NCBI RefSeq assembly: GCF_003334305.1
Contig: NZ_QOWS01000013.1
DNA from: Escherichia coli
GTDB lineage: Bacteria > Pseudomonadota > Gammaproteobacteria > Enterobacterales > Enterobacteriaceae
Length of the DNA stretch: 64,000 bases
Reading direction: 5' to 3' (one strand)
This document shows, one piece after another, positions 23,051 to 46,194 of this stretch. Within the stretch, counting starts at the first letter, position 1, and every line of letters starts with the position of its first letter. The notes below the pieces were generated by a model. It saw nothing but the letters and a program-made list of their open reading frames with translations. It was not told the origin of the DNA and made no database searches. The position numbers and the translations under genes were made by a program.

Positions 23051-23170
23051 AATCTCGCGCTAACAACCTGGAATCGAGCCGTCATACTACGGCGCAACGC
23101 CCTATAAAGTAAACGATGACCCTTCGGGAACTTCAGGGTAAAATGACTATCAAAATGTGAATTGTAGCTG

Positions 23171-23203
23171 ACCTGGGACTTGTACCCGGGTCGGTATTTT
23201 TTT
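23171..23203 (+). terminator. Terminator/attenuator hairpin in the greA leader (source of GraL short transcripts)
   Basis: Hairpin ACCTGGGACTTGTACCCGGGT followed by T7, about 95 nt upstream of the greA ATG. Confidence 0.5.
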
Positions 23204-29854: not shown

Positions 29855-29941
29855 GCCGAGGTGGTGGAATTGGTAGACACGCTACCTTGAGGTGGTAGTG
29901 CCCAATAGGGCTTACGGGTTCAAGTCCCGTCCTCGGTACCA
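29855..29941 (+). tRNA. leuU: tRNA-Leu (anticodon GAG), 87 nt, class II with long variable arm
   Basis: Sequence GCCGAGGTGGTGGAATTGGTAGACACGCTACCTTGAGGTGGTAG...GTCCTCGGTACCA with the anticodon loop CTTGAGG and an encoded CCA end. Confidence 0.95.
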
Positions 29942-33721: not shown

Positions 33722-33798
<77 letters not shown>

Positions 33799-33919
33799 CT
33801 TTCCCTTAGAGTCCTTTTTCAAATATACTGTGAAGACTTCGGCCTTCGTAGTGGGATTTGAAAAAATCCTTCTGGAAAGTGCTCCAGACCGCAGTTGCGG
33901 TTATAGGGTTCAGTTATAT

Positions 33920-33946
33920 AAAGCCCCGATTTATCGGGGTTTTTTG
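33920..33946 (+). terminator. Leader terminator/attenuator hairpin between metY and rimP
   Basis: Hairpin AGCCCCGATTTATCGGGGT followed by T6. Confidence 0.65.
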
Positions 33947-33967
33947 TTATCTGACTACAGAATAACT

Positions 33968-33987
33968 GGGCTTTAAGCCCTTTTTTT
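33968..33987 (+). terminator. Second hairpin with T tract immediately upstream of rimP
   Basis: GGGCTTTAAGCCC followed by T7; a tandem arrangement with the preceding hairpin. Confidence 0.45.
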
Positions 33988-35996: not shown

Positions 35997-38669
35997 ATGA
36001 CAGATGTAACGATTAAAACGCTGGCCGCAGAGCGACAGACCTCCGTGGAACGCCTGGTACAGCAATTTGCTGATGCAGGTATCCGGAAGTCTGCTGACGA
36101 CTCTGTGTCTGCACAAGAGAAACAGACTTTGATTGACCACCTGAATCAGAAAAATTCAGGCCCGGACAAATTGACGCTGCAACGTAAAACACGCAGCACC
36201 CTTAACATTCCTGGTACCGGTGGAAAAAGCAAATCGGTACAAATCGAAGTCCGCAAGAAACGCACCTTTGTGAAACGCGATCCGCAAGAGGCTGAACGCC
36301 TTGCAGCGGAAGAGCAAGCGCAGCGTGAAGCGGAAGAGCAAGCCCGTCGTGAGGCAGAAGAATCGGCTAAACGCGAGGCGCAACAAAAAGCTGAACGTGA
36401 GGCCGCAGAACAAGCTAAGCGTGAAGCTGCTGAACAAGCGAAACGTGAAGCTGCGGAAAAAGACAAAGTGAGCAATCAACAAGACGATATGACTAAAAAC
36501 GCCCAGGCTGAAAAAGCCCGCCGTGAGCAGGAAGCTGCAGAGCTCAAGCGTAAAGCTGAAGAAGAAGCGCGTCGTAAACTCGAAGAAGAAGCACGTCGCG
36601 TTGCTGAAGAAGCACGTCGTATGGCGGAAGAAAACAAATGGACTGATAACGCGGAACCGACTGAAGATTCCAGCGATTATCATGTCACAACTTCTCAACA
36701 TGCTCGCCAGGCAGAAGACGAAAGCGATCGTGAAGTCGAAGGCGGCCGTGGCCGTGGTCGTAACGCGAAAGCAGCGCGTCCGAAGAAAGGCAACAAACAC
36801 GCTGAATCAAAAGCTGATCGTGAAGAAGCACGCGCAGCAGTACGTGGCGGTAAAGGCGGAAAACGTAAAGGTTCTTCCCTGCAGCAAGGCTTCCAGAAGC
36901 CAGCTCAGGCCGTTAACCGTGACGTTGTGATCGGCGAAACCATCACCGTTGGCGAACTGGCGAACAAGATGGCGGTTAAAGGCTCTCAGGTCATCAAAGC
37001 GATGATGAAACTGGGCGCAATGGCAACCATCAACCAGGTTATCGATCAGGAAACCGCACAGCTGGTTGCTGAAGAGATGGGCCACAAAGTTATCCTGCGT
37101 CGTGAAAACGAGCTGGAAGAGGCGGTAATGAGCGACCGTGACACGGGGGCTGCGGCTGAACCGCGCGCGCCGGTTGTGACCATCATGGGTCACGTTGACC
37201 ACGGTAAAACCTCTCTGCTGGACTACATTCGTTCAACGAAAGTGGCCTCTGGCGAAGCGGGCGGCATTACCCAGCACATTGGTGCATACCACGTTGAAAC
37301 TGAAAACGGCATGATCACCTTCCTGGACACCCCGGGGCACGCCGCGTTTACTTCAATGCGTGCACGTGGTGCGCAGGCAACGGACATCGTAGTCCTGGTT
37401 GTTGCTGCCGACGACGGCGTGATGCCGCAGACCATCGAAGCAATCCAGCACGCGAAAGCGGCGCAGGTACCGGTGGTGGTTGCAGTGAACAAGATCGATA
37501 AACCAGAAGCCGATCCGGATCGTGTTAAGAACGAACTCTCCCAGTATGGCATCCTGCCGGAAGAGTGGGGCGGTGAAAGCCAGTTCGTACACGTATCTGC
37601 GAAAGCGGGTACCGGTATCGATGAACTGCTGGACGCTATCCTGCTGCAGGCGGAAGTTCTGGAGCTAAAAGCGGTACGTAAAGGTATGGCGAGCGGTGCG
37701 GTTATCGAATCCTTCCTCGATAAAGGTCGTGGTCCGGTTGCTACCGTTCTGGTACGTGAAGGTACTCTGCACAAGGGCGATATCGTTCTGTGTGGCTTCG
37801 AATACGGTCGTGTTCGTGCGATGCGTAACGAACTGGGTCAGGAAGTGCTGGAAGCGGGTCCGTCCATTCCGGTGGAAATCCTCGGCCTGTCCGGCGTACC
37901 GGCTGCGGGTGATGAAGTTACCGTTGTACGTGACGAGAAGAAAGCGCGTGAAGTTGCACTGTATCGTCAGGGTAAATTCCGCGAAGTTAAACTGGCGCGT
38001 CAGCAGAAATCTAAACTCGAGAACATGTTCGCCAACATGACCGAAGGCGAAGTTCACGAAGTGAACATCGTCCTGAAGGCAGACGTACAGGGTTCTGTGG
38101 AAGCGATCTCCGACTCCTTGCTGAAACTGTCTACTGACGAAGTTAAAGTGAAGATCATCGGTTCTGGCGTAGGTGGTATCACCGAAACCGACGCCACCCT
38201 GGCTGCGGCGTCCAACGCCATCCTGGTTGGCTTCAACGTACGTGCTGATGCCTCTGCACGTAAAGTGATTGAAGCGGAAAGCCTGGATCTGCGTTACTAC
38301 TCCGTCATCTATAACCTGATTGACGAAGTGAAAGCGGCGATGAGCGGTATGCTGTCTCCGGAACTGAAACAGCAGATTATCGGTCTGGCGGAAGTTCGTG
38401 ACGTGTTCAAATCGCCGAAATTTGGTGCCATCGCAGGCTGTATGGTTACCGAAGGTGTGGTTAAACGTCACAACCCGATCCGCGTTCTGCGTGACAACGT
38501 GGTTATCTACGAAGGCGAGCTGGAGTCCCTGCGCCGCTTCAAAGATGACGTTAACGAAGTCCGTAACGGTATGGAATGTGGTATCGGCGTTAAGAACTAC
38601 AACGACGTCCGCACTGGCGATGTGATCGAAGTATTCGAAATCATCGAGATCCAACGTACCATCGCTTAA
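35997..38669 (+). CDS. infB: Translation initiation factor IF-2, 890 aa (alpha form)
   Basis: G domain motifs GHVDHGKT and DTPGH; repetitive Ala/Glu/Lys/Arg-rich N-terminal region. Confidence 0.97.
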
Positions 38670-38679
38670 GGTTTTTAGG

Positions 38680-38758
38680 GTTCCATGCGGGATAAGGCGT
38701 TTATGCCGCATCCGGCATGGATTGCCTGATGTGACGCTGGCGCGTCTTATCAGGCCAA
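38680..38758. repeat. REP/BIME-like palindromic elements in the infB-rbfA spacer
   Basis: GCCTGATGTGACGCTGGCGCGTCTTATCAGGCC and CGGGATAAGGCGTTTATGCCGCATCCGGC, both typical REP palindromes. Confidence 0.6.
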
Positions 38759-40230: not shown

Positions 40231-40596
<366 letters not shown>

Positions 40597-40611: not shown

Positions 40612-40640
40612 GAAAAGGGGGCCTGAGTGGCCCCTTTTTT
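40612..40640 (+). terminator. rpsO rho-independent terminator
   Basis: Hairpin AAAAGGGGGCCTGAGTGGCCCC followed by T6. Confidence 0.75.
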
Positions 40641-40650
40641 CAAGCTGACG

Positions 40651-40824
40651 GCAGCAATTCACTGGAAACTAATGTATTGTTGCTATGAATGATCTTCCGT
40701 TGCAGAGGTTCGCGCGGCTAATGAGAGGCTTTACCCACATAGAGCTGGGTTAGGGTTGTCATTAGTCGCGAGGATGCGCAGAAGATCGGGTATTAACACC
40801 AGTGCCGTAAGGTACTGTCTAAGA
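40651..40824 (-). ncRNA. sraG: Possible SraG (PsrO) sRNA antisense in the rpsO-pnp spacer
   Basis: Placed from remembered K-12 position only; I cannot confirm the ends from sequence. Confidence 0.3.
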
Positions 40825-40842
40825 AAGAGAAAGGATATTACA

Positions 40843-42978
40843 TTGCTTAATCCGATCGTTCGTAAATTCCAGTACGGCCAACACACCGTGACTCTGGAAA
40901 CCGGCATGATGGCTCGTCAGGCTACTGCCGCTGTTATGGTTAGCATGGATGACACCGCGGTATTTGTTACCGTTGTTGGCCAGAAAAAAGCCAAACCAGG
41001 TCAGGACTTCTTCCCACTGACCGTTAACTATCAGGAGCGTACTTACGCTGCTGGTCGTATCCCGGGTAGCTTCTTCCGTCGTGAAGGCCGCCCAAGCGAA
41101 GGCGAAACCCTGATCGCGCGTCTGATTGACCGCCCGATTCGCCCGCTGTTCCCGGAAGGCTTCGTCAACGAAGTTCAGGTTATCGCCACCGTGGTTTCTG
41201 TTAACCCGCAAGTTAACCCGGATATCGTCGCGATGATTGGTGCTTCCGCAGCACTGTCTCTGTCTGGTATTCCGTTCAATGGTCCGATTGGTGCTGCTCG
41301 CGTAGGTTACATCAATGACCAGTACGTACTGAACCCGACTCAGGACGAGCTGAAAGAGAGCAAACTGGATCTGGTTGTTGCCGGTACTGAAGCCGCTGTT
41401 CTGATGGTTGAATCTGAAGCTGAACTGCTGAGCGAAGACCAGATGCTGGGCGCAGTAGTGTTCGGTCATGAACAACAGCAGGTTGTTATTCAGAACATCA
41501 ATGAACTGGTGAAAGAAGCCGGTAAACCACGTTGGGACTGGCAGCCGGAGCCGGTAAACGAAGCGCTGAACGCGCGCGTTGCTGCACTGGCTGAAGCTCG
41601 CCTGAGCGATGCTTACCGCATCACCGACAAACAAGAGCGTTATGCGCAGGTTGATGTCATCAAATCTGAAACCATCGCGACGCTGCTTGCTGAAGACGAA
41701 ACCCTGGACGAAAACGAACTGGGTGAAATTCTGCACGCTATCGAGAAAAACGTTGTTCGTAGCCGCGTACTGGCAGGCGAACCGCGTATCGACGGTCGTG
41801 AAAAAGATATGATCCGTGGTCTGGATGTGCGTACTGGCGTGCTGCCGCGTACTCACGGTTCTGCGCTGTTCACCCGCGGTGAAACGCAGGCACTGGTTAC
41901 TGCAACGCTGGGTACCGCTCGTGACGCGCAGGTTCTTGATGAACTGATGGGCGAACGTACCGATACCTTCCTGTTCCACTACAACTTCCCTCCGTACTCC
42001 GTAGGCGAAACCGGCATGGTCGGTTCTCCGAAGCGTCGTGAAATTGGTCACGGTCGTCTGGCGAAGCGCGGCGTGCTGGCAGTCATGCCGGATATGGACA
42101 AATTCCCGTACACCGTACGTGTAGTGTCTGAAATCACCGAATCCAACGGTTCTTCTTCTATGGCTTCCGTGTGCGGCGCGTCTCTGGCGCTGATGGACGC
42201 AGGTGTGCCAATCAAAGCTGCCGTTGCGGGTATCGCAATGGGTCTGGTGAAAGAAGGCGACAACTACGTTGTACTGTCTGACATTTTGGGCGACGAAGAT
42301 CACCTGGGCGATATGGACTTCAAAGTTGCAGGTTCCCGCGACGGTATCTCTGCACTGCAGATGGATATCAAAATTGAAGGTATCACCAAAGAGATCATGC
42401 AGGTTGCGCTGAACCAGGCTAAAGGTGCGCGTCTGCATATCCTGGGCGTAATGGAACAGGCGATCAACGCGCCGCGTGGCGATATCTCTGAGTTCGCACC
42501 GCGTATCCATACCATCAAGATCAACCCGGATAAGATCAAAGACGTTATCGGTAAAGGCGGCTCTGTTATCCGTGCCCTGACCGAAGAAACTGGCACTACC
42601 ATCGAAATCGAAGATGACGGTACTGTGAAGATCGCAGCGACCGACGGCGAGAAAGCGAAACATGCTATTCGTCGTATCGAAGAGATCACTGCAGAAATCG
42701 AAGTGGGCCGCGTCTACACTGGTAAAGTGACCCGTATCGTTGACTTTGGCGCATTTGTTGCCATCGGCGGCGGTAAAGAAGGTCTGGTCCACATCTCTCA
42801 AATCGCTGACAAACGCGTTGAGAAAGTGACCGATTACCTGCAGATGGGTCAGGAAGTACCGGTGAAAGTTCTGGAAGTTGATCGCCAGGGCCGTATCCGT
42901 CTGAGCATTAAAGAAGCGACTGAGCAGTCTCAACCTGCTGCAGCACCGGAAGCTCCGGCTGCTGAACAGGGCGAGTAA
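40843..42978 (+). CDS. pnp: Polynucleotide phosphorylase PNPase, 711 aa, UUG start
   Basis: Translation (M)[20 protein letters not shown] from TTG at 40843; two RNase PH domains, KH and S1; ORF-track start at 40756 is an upstream extension. Confidence 0.95.
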
Positions 42979-43087
42979 GGTTGCCATTTGCCCTCCGCTG
43001 CGGCGGGGGGCTTTTAACCGGGCAGGACGCCTTGTTGAGCCGCCGGGAACAGGACGTTCATTCAACCGTGGTCTTCGGGAGTGGGAA

Positions 43088-43972
43088 ATGAAGCCTTTTT
43101 TGCGCTGGTGTTTCGTTGCGACAGCACTTACGCTTGCAGGATGCAGTAATACTTCCTGGCGTAAAAGTGAAGTCCTCGCGGTACCATTGCAACCGACTTT
43201 ACAGCAGGAAGTGATTCTGGCACGTATGGAACAAATCCTTGCCAGTCGGGCTTTAACCGATGACGAACGCGCACAGCTTTTATATGAGCGCGGAGTGTTG
43301 TATGATAGTCTCGGTCTGAGGGCATTAGCGCGTAACGATTTTTCGCAAGCGCTGGCAATCCGACCGGATATGCCTGAAGTATTCAATTACTTAGGCATAT
43401 ATTTAACGCAGGCAGGCAATTTTGATGCTGCCTATGAAGCGTTTGATTCTGTACTTGAGCTTGATCCAACTTACAACTACGCGCACTTGAATCGCGGGAT
43501 CGCATTATATTACGGCGGTCGTGACAAGTTAGCGCAAGATGATCTGCTGGCGTTTTATCAAGACGATCCCAATGATCCTTTCCGTAGTCTGTGGCTTTAT
43601 CTCGCCGAGCAGAAGCTCGATGAGAAGCAGGCTAAAGAAGTGTTGAAACAGCACTTCGAAAAATCGGATAAGGAACAGTGGGGATGGAACATTGTCGAGT
43701 TCTACCTGGGCAACATTAGCGAACAAACGTTAATGGAAAGGCTCAAGGCGGACGCAACGGATAACACCTCGCTCGCTGAGCATCTCAGTGAAACCAACTT
43801 CTATTTAGGTAAGTACTACCTAAGTCTGGGGGATTTGGACAGCGCCACGGCACTGTTCAAACTGGCGGTTGCCAACAACGTTCATAACTTTGTTGAGCAC
43901 CGATACGCATTGTTGGAATTATCGCTCCTGGGCCAGGACCAAGATGACCTGGCAGAATCGGACCAGCAATAG
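43088..43972 (+). CDS. nlpI: TPR-repeat outer-membrane lipoprotein NlpI, 294 aa
   Basis: Lipobox LTLAGCSN and TPR repeats in the translation. Confidence 0.96.
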
Positions 43973-44151
43973 CTGACGTACACATCAGCCCGTAATCTTT
44001 TTTGATTGCCATCACCTTAACGGGTGAGGGCGTTGTTGTTCGTTAATACACCTACTTTGAGCCGGTTCACACTTTTCAATGAAAATTGCTGATCAATTTC
44101 ATGATGAGTTATGTAGACTGGCCGCCATTAATTTTGAGGCACACGTACTAC

Positions 44152-46041
44152 ATGGCTGAATTCGAAACCACTTTTGCAGATCTGGGCCTGAAGGCTCCTA
44201 TCCTTGAAGCCCTTAACGATCTGGGTTACGAAAAACCATCTCCAATTCAGGCAGAGTGTATTCCACATCTGCTGAATGGCCGCGACGTTCTGGGTATGGC
44301 CCAGACGGGGAGCGGAAAAACTGCAGCATTCTCTTTACCTCTGTTGCAGAATCTTGATCCTGAGCTGAAAGCACCACAGATTCTGGTGCTGGCACCGACC
44401 CGCGAACTGGCGGTACAGGTTGCTGAAGCAATGACGGATTTCTCTAAACACATGCGCGGCGTAAATGTGGTTGCTCTGTACGGCGGCCAGCGTTATGACG
44501 TGCAATTACGCGCCCTGCGTCAGGGGCCGCAGATCGTTGTCGGTACTCCGGGCCGTCTGCTGGACCACCTGAAACGTGGCACTCTGGACCTCTCTAAACT
44601 GAGCGGTCTGGTTCTGGATGAAGCTGACGAAATGCTGCGCATGGGCTTCATCGAAGACGTTGAAACCATTATGGCGCAGATCCCGGAAGGTCATCAGACC
44701 GCTCTGTTCTCTGCAACCATGCCGGAAGCGATTCGTCGCATTACCCGCCGCTTTATGAAAGAGCCGCAGGAAGTGCGCATTCAGTCCAGCGTGACTACCC
44801 GTCCTGACATCAGCCAGAGCTACTGGACTGTCTGGGGTATGCGTAAAAACGAAGCACTGGTACGTTTCCTGGAAGCGGAAGATTTTGATGCGGCGATTAT
44901 CTTCGTTCGTACCAAAAATGCGACTCTGGAAGTGGCTGAAGCTCTTGAGCGTAACGGCTACAACAGTGCCGCGCTGAACGGTGACATGAACCAGGCGCTG
45001 CGTGAGCAGACACTGGAACGCCTGAAAGATGGTCGTCTGGACATCCTGATTGCGACCGACGTTGCAGCCCGTGGCCTGGACGTTGAGCGTATCAGCCTGG
45101 TGGTTAACTACGATATCCCGATGGATTCTGAGTCTTACGTTCACCGTATCGGTCGTACCGGTCGTGCGGGTCGTGCTGGCCGCGCGCTGCTGTTCGTTGA
45201 GAACCGCGAGCGTCGTCTGCTGCGCAACATTGAACGTACTATGAAGCTGACTATTCCGGAAGTAGAACTGCCGAACGCAGAACTGCTGGGCAAACGCCGT
45301 CTGGAAAAATTCGCCGCTAAAGTACAGCAGCAGCTGGAAAGCAGCGATCTGGATCAATACCGCGCACTGCTGAGCAAAATTCAGCCGACTGCAGAAGGTG
45401 AAGAGCAGGATCTCGAAACTCTGGCTGCGGCACTGCTGAAAATGGCACAGGGTGAACGTACTCTGATTGTTCCGCCAGATGCGCCGATGCGTCCGAAACG
45501 TGAATTCCGTGACCGTGATGACCGTGGTCCGCGCGATCGTAACGACCGTGGCCCACGTGGCGACCGTGAAGATCGTCCGCGTCGTGAACGTCGTGATGTT
45601 GGTGACATGCAGCTTTACCGCATTGAAGTGGGCCGCGATGATGGTGTTGAAGTTCGTCATATCGTTGGCGCGATTGCTAACGAAGGCGACATCAGCAGCC
45701 GTTACATCGGTAACATTAAGCTGTTTGCTTCTCACTCCACTATCGAACTGCCGAAAGGTATGCCGGGTGAAGTACTGCAACACTTTACGCGTACTCGCAT
45801 TCTGAACAAGCCGATGAATATGCAGTTGCTGGGCGATGCGCAGCCGCATACTGGCGGTGAGCGTCGTGGCGGTGGTCGTGGTTTCGGTGGCGAGCGTCGT
45901 GAAGGCGGTCGTAACTTCAGCGGTGAACGCCGTGAAGGTGGTCGTGGTGATGGTCGTCGTTTTAGCGGCGAACGTCGTGAAGGCCGCGCACCGCGTCGTG
46001 ATGACTCTACCGGTCGTCGTCGTTTCGGTGGCGATGCGTAA
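44152..46041 (+). CDS. deaD: Cold-shock DEAD-box RNA helicase DeaD (CsdA), 629 aa
   Basis: Motifs GSGKT, DEAD, SAT and [11 protein letters not shown]; Arg/Gly-rich repetitive C-terminus; start at the internal Met [13 protein letters not shown]. Confidence 0.95.
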
Positions 46042-46066
46042 TCATCGCTGAACAGCGAACACAGTC

Positions 46067-46084
46067 TGTAAAATAATATATACA
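46067..46084. promoter_or_regulatory. Putative TyrR box (TGTAAA-N6-TATACA) upstream of mtr
   Basis: TGTAAAataataTATACA resembles the TyrR box consensus TGTAAA-N6-TTTACA. Confidence 0.35.
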
Positions 46085-46115
46085 GCCCCGATTTGAACCA
46101 TCGGGGCTTTTTTTC
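46083..46115 (+). terminator. deaD rho-independent terminator
   Basis: Hairpin CAGCCCCGATTTGAACCATCGGGGCT followed by T7. Confidence 0.75.
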
Positions 46116-46123
46116 TGTCTTTT

Positions 46124-46141
46124 GTACTCGTGTACTGGTAC
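46124..46141. promoter_or_regulatory. Putative TrpR operator in the mtr promoter
   Basis: GTACTCGTGTACTGGTAC resembles the Trp operator palindrome (GTACTAGTTAACTAGTAC). Confidence 0.45.
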
Positions 46142-46194
46142 AGTGCAATACATAACAACGCAGTCGCACTATTTTTCACTGGAGAGAAGCCCTC

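Follow-up and report, generated by a model that had tools for sequence, protein, structure and literature searches.

The interval 45480–46030 of the window (the whole 64-kb stretch of DNA analysed here) is the 3' end of deaD/csdA on the Escherichia coli chromosome, and it encodes the well-known and already described C-terminal extension of the cold-shock DEAD-box RNA helicase DeaD/CsdA. In this extension, a folded RRM of the DbpA type (aa 484-563) lies between an R/D-rich linker (aa 446-483) and an R/G/E-rich tail (aa 564-629). The feature flagged in an earlier note on this DNA is ordinary and already known: the protein is the one characterized by Xu et al. (2017; PDB 5gi4, 5gju and 5b88), with an identical domain layout and no difference of substance.

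Layout of the DeaD C-terminal extension

The coding sequence of deaD (csdA) occupies 44152..46041 on the plus strand and translates to 629 aa plus a stop codon. The gene name given in the earlier note is confirmed by RefSeq annotation, as 100% identical DNA is labelled deaD in RefSeq E. coli genomes, and by the NCBIfam equivalog PRK11634, which scores 1395.5 bits (cut-off 989) with aa 1-629 aligned to positions 1-628 of a 628-position profile; the K-12 CDS is 1890 nt. Both peptides quoted in that note are encoded exactly by this plus-strand ORF ending at 46041, as aa 453-482 (45508–45597) and aa 568-612 (45853–45987). Pfam domains occur in the order DEAD (aa 30-196), Helicase_C (232-340), DeaD_dimer (374-443), DbpA (489-558) and DeaD_C (568-629), and PDB entries 5gju, 5gi4 and 5b88 together span the protein except for aa 446-480 and 565-629.

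Upstream of deaD is a 294-aa ORF (43088–43972) with a lipobox-like LAGC that fits the TPR lipoprotein nlpI, TPR matches being present in the orthologous gene upstream of deaD, and the downstream gene in RefSeq annotation is mtr (tryptophan permease). A scan identified a hairpin and T tract resembling an intrinsic terminator 43 nt past the deaD stop codon (46084..46115, plus strand; 9-bp stem with six G-C pairs, TTTTTTT tail). No RNA family was detected within or beside deaD when the window was scanned in full with Rfam, and no inverted repeats were detected by a scan of 45400–46100.

The extension begins after the dimerization domain (aa 374-443; 45271..45480, plus strand; Pfam PF25399 DeaD_dimer, E 4.8e-17), which falls within the region covered by PDB 5gi4 (aa 218-445). 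It continues on the same strand with the mixed-charge R/D-rich linker (45487..45600), whose core is the first of the two quoted peptides, the DbpA-type RRM RNA-binding domain (45601..45840; Pfam PF03880 DbpA at aa 489-558, E 3e-20; PDB 5b88, ∼aa 481-564) and the R/G/E-rich tail (45841..46038; Pfam PF12343 DeaD_C at aa 568-629, E 9.2e-12, profile positions 1-62 of 62), which is predicted to be disordered. In an AlphaFold2 model of DeaD that rests on a shallow alignment of 22 sequences, the RRM adopts a beta-alpha-beta-beta-alpha-beta fold with pLDDT 67-82, and aa 436-483 (pLDDT <50) and the tail (pLDDT ∼40) are without secondary structure. Low confidence of this kind speaks for disorder only indirectly. 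The linker is missing from every solved DeaD fragment, the tail is in no PDB entry, and PF12343 is itself named "DeaD helicase C-terminal disordered region." Linker and tail are accordingly predicted to be disordered segments flanking a folded RRM that is almost invariant over 22 orthologs. The earlier note had described a single low-complexity C-terminal tail, a description that suits the last ∼66 residues; the first of its two peptides is the linker, and the folded RRM lies between.

Repeat units in the linker and tail

The tail contains 20 G, 19 R, 7 E, 4 D and 4 F, has a net charge of +8, carries F every 11-15 residues and closes with a conserved RRRFGGDA. The glutamates and aspartates make it less basic than classical RNA-tethering tails, an observation that counts against a tether. 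A regular-expression scan of aa 564-629 found one RGG, three RG, one di-RG (RGGGRG), four GERR and three GGR motifs, and no di-RGG or tri-RG. Thandapani and colleagues reportedly defined the RGG/RG box in 2013 by clusters (tri-RGG, di-RGG or tri-RG) whose members are 0-4 residues apart, and by this definition the DeaD tail is not a canonical box. The term "RGG/RG-like" used in the earlier note therefore applies only loosely, in the sense of R/G-rich, the actual motif being GERR or GGR in the company of acidic residues. E. coli is not known to possess PRMT-type arginine methylation.

An imperfect tandem repeat of 33 nt (11 aa) is present in the tail at 45853..45996 on the plus strand, in ∼3-4 units, as judged by TRF, a repeat search, codon shuffles and a lag-11 test on the protein. 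The units are U1 (45853–45885), U2 (45886–45918), U3 (45919–45963, including a 4-aa GRRF insertion) and a degenerate U4 (45964–45996). TRF reports 45854–45948 with period 33, 2.9 copies, 72% matches and a score of 106, the highest in the window, and the repeat search recovers three copies of 44 nt with 73-84% identity. Of 500 codon shuffles, only 1-13 (according to the segment and window chosen) reach the best 33-45 nt diagonal in the tail, and the autocorrelation of the tail protein peaks at lag 11 (z 3.5), a value reached by 70 of 5000 shuffles. Where two units have the same amino acid, the codon is also shared at 27 of 43 positions, against 27.9 expected from codon usage. The likeness of the units in DNA is no greater than the protein repeat and codon bias predict and, because of this degree of codon sharing, the DNA periodicity of the tail is read as a reflection of an ancient protein repeat, without recent DNA duplication. 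The proposal that the tail is built from tandem DNA repeats thus picked out a real, imperfect 33-nt repeat and overstated its DNA signal.

The linker holds approximately three 8-aa units (RDRDDRGP, RDRNDRGP and RGDREDRP), and its protein autocorrelation has an 8-residue period at a z of 3.4, which 44 of 5000 shuffles attain. Its core alternates R with D/E and is 77% charged; over aa 446-488, 65% of residues are charged and the net charge is +4. At the DNA level, the self-similarity of the linker (windowed diagonal) is within the range of codon shuffles, 240-334 of 500 reaching it, and TRF finds only a 9-nt row with a score of 31. We dropped the linker as a candidate DNA tandem repeat given this nonsignificant diagonal test, its period being found at the protein level only. 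The DNA between the two peptides (45598–45852, 255 bases), which encodes the folded RRM, has no self-similarity, so that 45480–46030 does not form a single uninterrupted low-complexity tail.

The earlier note suggested that repeat copy number be compared among strains, and variation of this kind turned out to be infrequent. A 216-nt tail query was run against 5426 complete E. coli genomes, of which ∼97% have a tail of the same length as this strain, which carries the majority-length allele. The one common variant has 12 additional nucleotides (CGTGAAGGTGGT, encoding REGG), inserted inside U2 near 45895, and is present in ∼187 of the 5426 genomes (∼3.4%), which have a tail longer by 4 aa. Tail coverage is below 80% in three genomes, and the one examined, the clinical isolate FXCREC035, has an in-frame 132-nt deletion flanked by a pair of 8-nt direct repeats, GCGTCGTG, that lie 132 nt apart (45860..45999, plus strand; located by alignment). 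With 44 of its 66 tail residues gone, FXCREC035 still has a deaD annotated as intact, suggesting that viability, at least, does not depend on most of the repeat. A test for a VNTR or slippage-prone locus was negative, as the units are not more alike in DNA than required and copy-number polymorphism is not frequent among the 5426 genomes.

Indels were placed using DNA and protein alignments of the window, K-12, L001 and L002. Ortholog tails were taken from a homolog search with the C-terminal 256 aa, which returned mostly gene fragments from metagenome assemblies with few species names, and two of the source scaffolds carry an in-frame stop or an N gap. Orthologs from the Enterobacteriaceae have ∼2-5 tail units and an invariant RRM, with conservation of the terminal RRRFGGDA and of GERREGG units, whereas orthologs of ∼50% identity have an unrelated, K/N-rich tail with no GERR units. 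The linker is also an indel hot spot among orthologs, an additional DRNDRG unit in ortholog P0005 being one example. Every indel seen in linker or tail, among strains and orthologs alike, is in frame. Between the window and K-12, 25 of 26 differences over 45100–46041 are synonymous third-position changes, including both of those in the linker and all five in the tail, which differs from that of K-12 DeaD by synonymous changes only; the sole amino-acid difference among the 313 DeaD residues compared is Q419 versus L. Since nearly all differences from K-12 are synonymous and every indel is in frame, the sense frame of the deaD 3' end appears to be under purifying selection. The repeat most likely originated long ago, when an 11-codon unit underwent slippage or unequal recombination, and would now be kept at the protein level, with composition and approximate length being selected and the exact number of units less so.

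Proposed function of the low-complexity segments

Linker and tail probably form a flexible cationic RNA tether that aids annealing and condensate formation. The linker would be a flexible leash giving each RBD of the dimer access to RNA at sites surrounding both helicase cores, and the net-positive tail would add non-specific, multivalent electrostatic contacts with RNA. Such contacts may hold DeaD on large structured RNAs (50S precursors and mRNAs, for example), make strands anneal faster and play a part in RNA-dependent condensation. C-terminally truncated CsdA, in work ascribed to Turner in 2007, reportedly complements at 25 °C and fails to do so at 15 °C. PMC11850223, citing Xu 2017, describes CsdA as a stable dimer with the RBD as its major RNA platform. 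Among the DEAD-box proteins of E. coli, five in number, CsdA has the longest CTD, which is locally basic and has been proposed as the seat of ATP-independent annealing (PMC3590231). CsdA comprising core, dimerization domain and RRM without the tail has ATPase and unwinding activities above those of the dimeric core (PMC11850223); therefore, the tail is not required for catalysis in vitro.

The dimeric DEAD-box helicases Hera of T. thermophilus and CshA of Geobacillus and Staphylococcus share with DeaD the layout of core, dimerization domain and RNA-anchoring RRM-type RBD (PMC11850223). CshA (PDB 5ivl) aligns with DeaD aa 6-433, and the NCBIfam CshA model scores 497 on DeaD, below its cut-off of 646. 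Unlike Hera and CshA, the enterobacterial DeaD lineage, and it alone, has the long R/D linker and a tail of GERREGGR repeats. The C-tails of the DEAD-box RNA chaperones Mss116p and CYT-19 are likewise net-positive, predicted to be unstructured and located after the helicase and ancillary domains, and a role in non-specific tethering to structured RNA and in helping annealing has been proposed for them (Mallam et al. 2011, cited in PMC3590231). However, they have no sequence relationship to the DeaD tail, a periodic segment rich in glycine with 11 acidic residues, for which tethering is a proposal. Eukaryotic RGG/RG boxes (FMRP, hnRNP U, and the Ded1/DDX3 and LAF-1/DDX4 N-termini) resemble the tail in being R/G-rich and of low complexity, with F spacers, attachment to helicases and a link to condensates, but the tail is made of glutamate-containing GERR/GGR units and has a single RGG and a single di-RG. 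The basic-acidic motifs of the mixed-charge U1-70K LC1 domain, as described in PMC6834393, resemble the DeaD linker in composition, although the linker is short (∼30-38 aa), bacterial and interdomain. We also considered a regulated degron like that reported for the C-terminus of cyanobacterial CrhR (PMC9117542) and rejected it, as DeaD offers no sequence or motif evidence for one.

Several observations speak for a different emphasis, in which the main selected function of both low-complexity segments is to drive or tune DeaD phase separation, with RNA tethering secondary and the threshold set by repeat valency (R, G and F stickers and mixed-charge blocks). DeaD shows LLPS in vitro that depends on salt and concentration, and it also makes condensates in vivo (PMC12758526); together with SrmB and RhlE it is listed among phase-separating DEAD-box ATPases (PMC9232405). 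In Pseudomonas, both the phase separation and the specificity of RhlE helicases are governed by their C-terminal IDRs (PMC11260450), and the periodic F and R/G spacing of the tail, together with the 65%-charged linker, fits sticker-spacer and mixed-charge designs. We nevertheless regard this emphasis as unlikely: the literature consulted, PMC12758526 included, assigns DeaD condensation to neither aa 446-483 nor aa 564-629, a dimer carrying two RBDs is multivalent even without tails, and the K/N-rich tails of the ∼50%-identical orthologs, without GERR units, have a different composition. It is a speculative and rather improbable extension that the number of units in tail and linker is a slowly evolving tuning knob for the condensation threshold or the strength of RNA tethering, of which the +REGG allele, fixed in a minority lineage of E. 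coli, and the ∼2-5 units of the Enterobacteriaceae would be examples.

The indel hot spot within and between species, the natural 44-aa deletion allele and a tail that is unneeded for catalysis in vitro would all be expected if the repeats were neutral slippage products, tolerated at an unconstrained C-terminus and having no role beyond spacing. This is very improbable given that the tail is a recognisable Pfam family matched over its full length, that RRRFGGDA and GERREGG units are kept in Enterobacteriaceae orthologs, that linker and tail differ from K-12 by 7 substitutions, every one of them synonymous, and that ∼97% of the 5426 genomes have the same length and all indels are in frame.

Antisense reading frames and implications

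Three ORFs run antisense to deaD on the minus strand: one of 145 aa over the tail (45732..46169), one of 75 aa over the linker (45381..45608) and the longest, of 447 aa (44506..45849), in the codon-aligned frame (phase 0 relative to deaD codons). The earlier note correctly called such ORFs spurious: in K-12 the 447-aa frame contains two stop codons and the 75-aa ORF has lost its start codon (M>I at 45606). Their attribution to the repeats, in contrast, has to be replaced by codon composition. Among its 630 codons deaD has two TTA, no CTA and no TCA, and the 447-aa ORF is an artefact of this gene-wide codon bias and not of the repeats. Codon-shuffled versions of the tail have 0-1.1 antisense stops per frame, while for the RRM, a segment of comparable length, the figure is 3-5.4 in the two frames that are not codon-aligned; because the shuffles keep the frames nearly stop-free, the 145-aa and 75-aa ORFs are by-products of codon composition and not of repeat order.

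That the 145-aa or the 75-aa ORF is a real overlapping gene is extremely improbable, for although both frames are open in the window, a same-phase open stretch occurs at two orthologous loci and K-12 substitutions are mostly synonymous in the antisense frame too, the third positions of these ORFs coincide with those of deaD, where synonymous changes are expected, the tail frame stays nearly stop-free after codon shuffling, the start codon of the 75-aa ORF is gone in K-12, the 145-aa ORF would need a start within the mtr promoter region and would have to cross the deaD terminator, the far end of its open stretch varies between species (98 nt versus 23 nt past the stop in orthologous loci), and it has no annotation in the RefSeq genomes inspected.

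The findings matter little beyond correct annotation. They correct an interval in which a folded RNA-binding domain stands between two dissimilar segments predicted to be disordered, and indicate that gene calling should pass over the long antisense ORFs of deaD. Tail-length alleles that occur naturally (+4 aa, ∼3.4% of genomes; −44 aa, one isolate) are ready reagents for testing the predicted disordered regions of DeaD in tethering and condensates. If unit number did prove to be a tuning knob, cold adaptation or the recently reported antibiotic persistence linked to DeaD condensates would be affected, and these alleles would differ in phenotype.

Domain layout of the deaD 3' end

The flagged interval (45480-46030) lies at the 3' end of deaD (csdA), which encodes the cold-shock DEAD-box RNA helicase DeaD (CsdA) on the + strand from ATG 44152, in the RefSeq-consistent frame, to 46041 (629 aa). 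A 701-nt query around this end matches several E. coli chromosomes at 100% identity and is found in 5426 of 5426 complete E. coli genomes, with deaD as the underlying annotation throughout, and the protein matches the NCBIfam equivalog PRK11634 end to end at 1395.5 bits (cut-off 989). Pfam assigns DEAD (aa 30-196), Helicase_C (aa 232-340), DeaD_dimer (aa 374-443), a DbpA RNA-binding domain (aa 489-558) and DeaD_C, a "C-terminal disordered region" (aa 568-629). The mechanical ORF begins at a TTG 22 codons 5' of the ATG (44086-44151), an extension outside the annotated protein; ATG 44152 agrees with the 1890-nt RefSeq CDS. Searches of the E. coli collection with 45400-46100 and 45830-46045 gave one deaD 3'-end match on a record labelled plasmid, and some genomes have two matching places.

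An earlier note read the interval as a single low-complexity tail carrying two peptides. Both are encoded exactly, at aa 453-482 (45508-45597) and aa 568-612 (45853-45987), and the 255 nt separating them code for a DbpA-type RRM. The second peptide does belong to the C-terminal tail; the first is interdomain linker, because it is placed between the dimerization and RNA-binding domains. The observation is thus real but partly mis-described, the interval being three parts, linker (aa 446-483), RRM (aa 484-563) and tail (aa 564-629), not one tail. Solved structures (5gju, aa 6-210; 5gi4, aa 218-445; 5b88, about aa 481-564) together span all of DeaD except the two low-complexity segments. In an AlphaFold2 model of aa 374-629 (input 22 orthologs), aa 484-563 form a folded beta-alpha-beta-beta-alpha-beta domain (pLDDT 67-82), and aa 436-483 and 564-629 have pLDDT <50 and no secondary structure, a prediction consistent with disorder.

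Repeats and composition of the tail and linker

The self-similarity that the earlier note expected of a dot-plot is present in the tail. TRF reports an array at 45854-45948 (period 33, 2.9 copies, 72% matches) whose score of 106 is the highest in the 64-kb window, the remaining arrays all being in infB, and a repeat search recovers three 44-nt copies (73-84% identity) and five GCGGTGAGCGTCGTG-like copies, four of them within the tail at spacings of 33, 33 and 45 nt. Permuting the codons of a segment leaves its amino-acid and codon content unchanged, and only 1-13 of 500 such shuffles (range over segments and windows) reach the best 33-45 nt diagonal. Protein autocorrelation at lag 11 has a z of 3.5, with the all-lag maximum reached by 70 of 5000 shuffles, and the tail comprises four 11-residue units in series, the third with an extra GRRF.

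The description "built from tandem DNA repeats" goes further than the DNA signal, because codon sharing between tail units is only as expected. At 43 positions where units have the same amino acid, 27 share the codon versus 27.9 expected from tail codon usage, and nothing indicates that units were recently duplicated or homogenised. A protein-level repeat expressed through strongly biased codons (CGT, GGT/GGC, GAA) therefore accounts fully for the DNA periodicity. An 11-codon unit was presumably duplicated to give the repeat, and the event is old: Enterobacteriaceae orthologs have the same units. Nor does the description hold for the linker, where repetition is real only in part, at the protein and not the DNA level: DNA self-similarity is not above codon shuffles (240-334 of 500 reach the observed value), and the protein has a period of 8 residues (RDRDDRGP / RDRNDRGP / RGDREDRP; z 3.4, 44 of 5000 shuffles), with whole DRNDRG-type units gained or lost among orthologs. 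The DNA diagonal test detected no self-similarity in the RRM-coding middle. The only other tandem arrays of the window (36305-36632), within an 890-aa IF2/infB-like + strand ORF (35997..38669), have a period of 24 nt, 8-aa charged units and TRF scores of 68-88; here too a translation-related protein carries charged low-complexity repeats.

Linker and tail are two different kinds of low complexity. The linker is a mixed-charge R/D segment (core 77% charged, net +3), whereas the tail is R/G-rich (20 G, 19 R, 7 E, 4 D, 4 F; net charge +8) with recurrent GERR (four), GGR (three) and F[GS]GERR (three) elements. The usual RGG-box motif definitions are those of Thandapani et al. 2013. A motif scan of aa 564-629 found one RGG and one di-RG and neither di-RGG nor tri-RG, so that membership of the RGG-box class under those definitions is unsupported; "RGG/RG-like" is acceptable loosely, as R/G-rich and RGG-like.

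Antisense frames and variation among genomes

Open antisense frames on the - strand comprise 447 aa (44506..45849, codon-aligned), 145 aa over the tail (45732..46169) and 75 aa over the linker (45381..45608). They are long and spurious, as previously supposed: none has a RefSeq annotation in the genomes inspected, K-12 has two stop codons in the frame of the 447-aa ORF and has lost the start codon of the 75-aa ORF, and the far end of the 145-aa stretch is not the same across orthologous loci. Their attribution to the repeats does not survive. Codon-shuffled tail and linker have antisense frames almost without stops (mean 0-1.1 per frame), and therefore openness comes from composition, not repeat order; shuffled RRM of similar length has 3-5.4 stops in two non-codon-aligned antisense frames. 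In the codon-aligned antisense frame, stops come solely from sense TTA, CTA or TCA codons, of which the 630 codons of deaD include 2, 0 and 0, respectively, and we reject the 447-aa ORF as a gene in favor of a gene-wide codon-bias artefact. An 855-aa antisense ORF (40819..43386, - strand), exactly codon-aligned with a pnp-like + strand gene (open 40693-42978, only 4 TTA/CTA/TCA codons), is an artefact of the same kind.

An Rfam scan of the whole window found no family in or adjoining deaD. Gathering-level matches elsewhere are SraG (40613-40784, -), the S15 (40269-40383, +), greA (23081-23202, +) and rimP (33887-33987, +) leaders, ArcZ (1475-1582, -) and naRNA4 (38686-38756, +), and the scan also gave two tRNAs (29855-29938 and 33722-33795). 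A strong bidirectional-looking hairpin (46084-46115; 9-bp stem, T tract on the + strand) lies 3' of deaD, and the start codon of mtr (46195) follows about 80 nt further downstream.

K-12 differs at 26 positions across 45100-46041, and 25 of these are synonymous third-position changes, among them all seven in linker and tail; every indel observed is in frame. The low-complexity segments are therefore under purifying selection on composition and approximate length. The sole replacement is residue 419 in the dimerization domain (45407), Q (CAG) here and L in K-12. L419 also occurs in two other E. coli loci compared, and Q419 is the single amino-acid difference over 313 residues.

Comparison of copy number among strains, as the earlier note proposed, yields some length alleles, yet the great majority of the 5426 genomes belong to the same length class. 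A 216-nt tail query has at least 80% coverage in 5423 of them; in the 178 genomes at 90-95% identity, an insertion of 12 nt, CGTGAAGGTGGT, puts REGG inside unit 2. Querying with this allele gave 161 genomes at ≥99% identity and 26 at 95-99%, about 187 carriers (3.4%), among them strains 042 and PCN033. In FXCREC035, a urine isolate, 132 nt are deleted in frame, exactly between two GCGTCGTG direct repeats; 44 of 66 tail residues are lost, and deaD there keeps its annotation as an intact CDS. The tail is therefore prone to indels without being a hypervariable VNTR. Between species the RRM hardly varies, and linker and tail are indel hot spots: Enterobacteriaceae orthologs have roughly 2-5 tail units and duplicated APRRDD units, and in orthologs of ~50% identity the tails are unrelated and rich in K/N/R. 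The ortholog protein search returned mostly fragments because deaD is split in two metagenome scaffolds, L004, with an in-frame TAG at an E. coli Trp codon (1495-1497) and a neighbouring Val codon reading Ala, and L005, with a run of N at about 1385-1400; the splits are probably assembly or sequencing artefacts, or pseudogenes.

Proposed role of the low-complexity segments

Among the five DEAD-box proteins of E. coli, CsdA has the longest C-terminal extension, which is locally basic and the proposed seat of ATP-independent annealing activity (PMC3590231). CsdA forms a stable dimer, as do Hera and CshA, and binds RNA mainly through its RBD; a construct complete except for the tail shows higher activity than the dimeric core (PMC11850223, quoting Xu 2017). 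Phase separation of DeaD occurs in vitro, and in vivo the protein marks condensates (PMC12758526; PMC9232405). We propose that the R/D linker may be a flexible leash joining the dimerization domain to the RBD, and that the cationic, periodic tail would contribute nonspecific multivalent RNA contacts, through which it may aid tethering, annealing and condensation; the papers cited assign none of them to aa 446-483 or aa 564-629 in particular. Anatomy, predicted disorder, charge, periodicity, conservation pattern and allele spectrum are shown by the present analysis, and the overall explanation, which adds the leash and RNA-contact roles, seems to us reasonably likely. The region is a textbook one, already known and with its own Pfam family; the natural tail length alleles are the only mildly new items and could serve as reagents.
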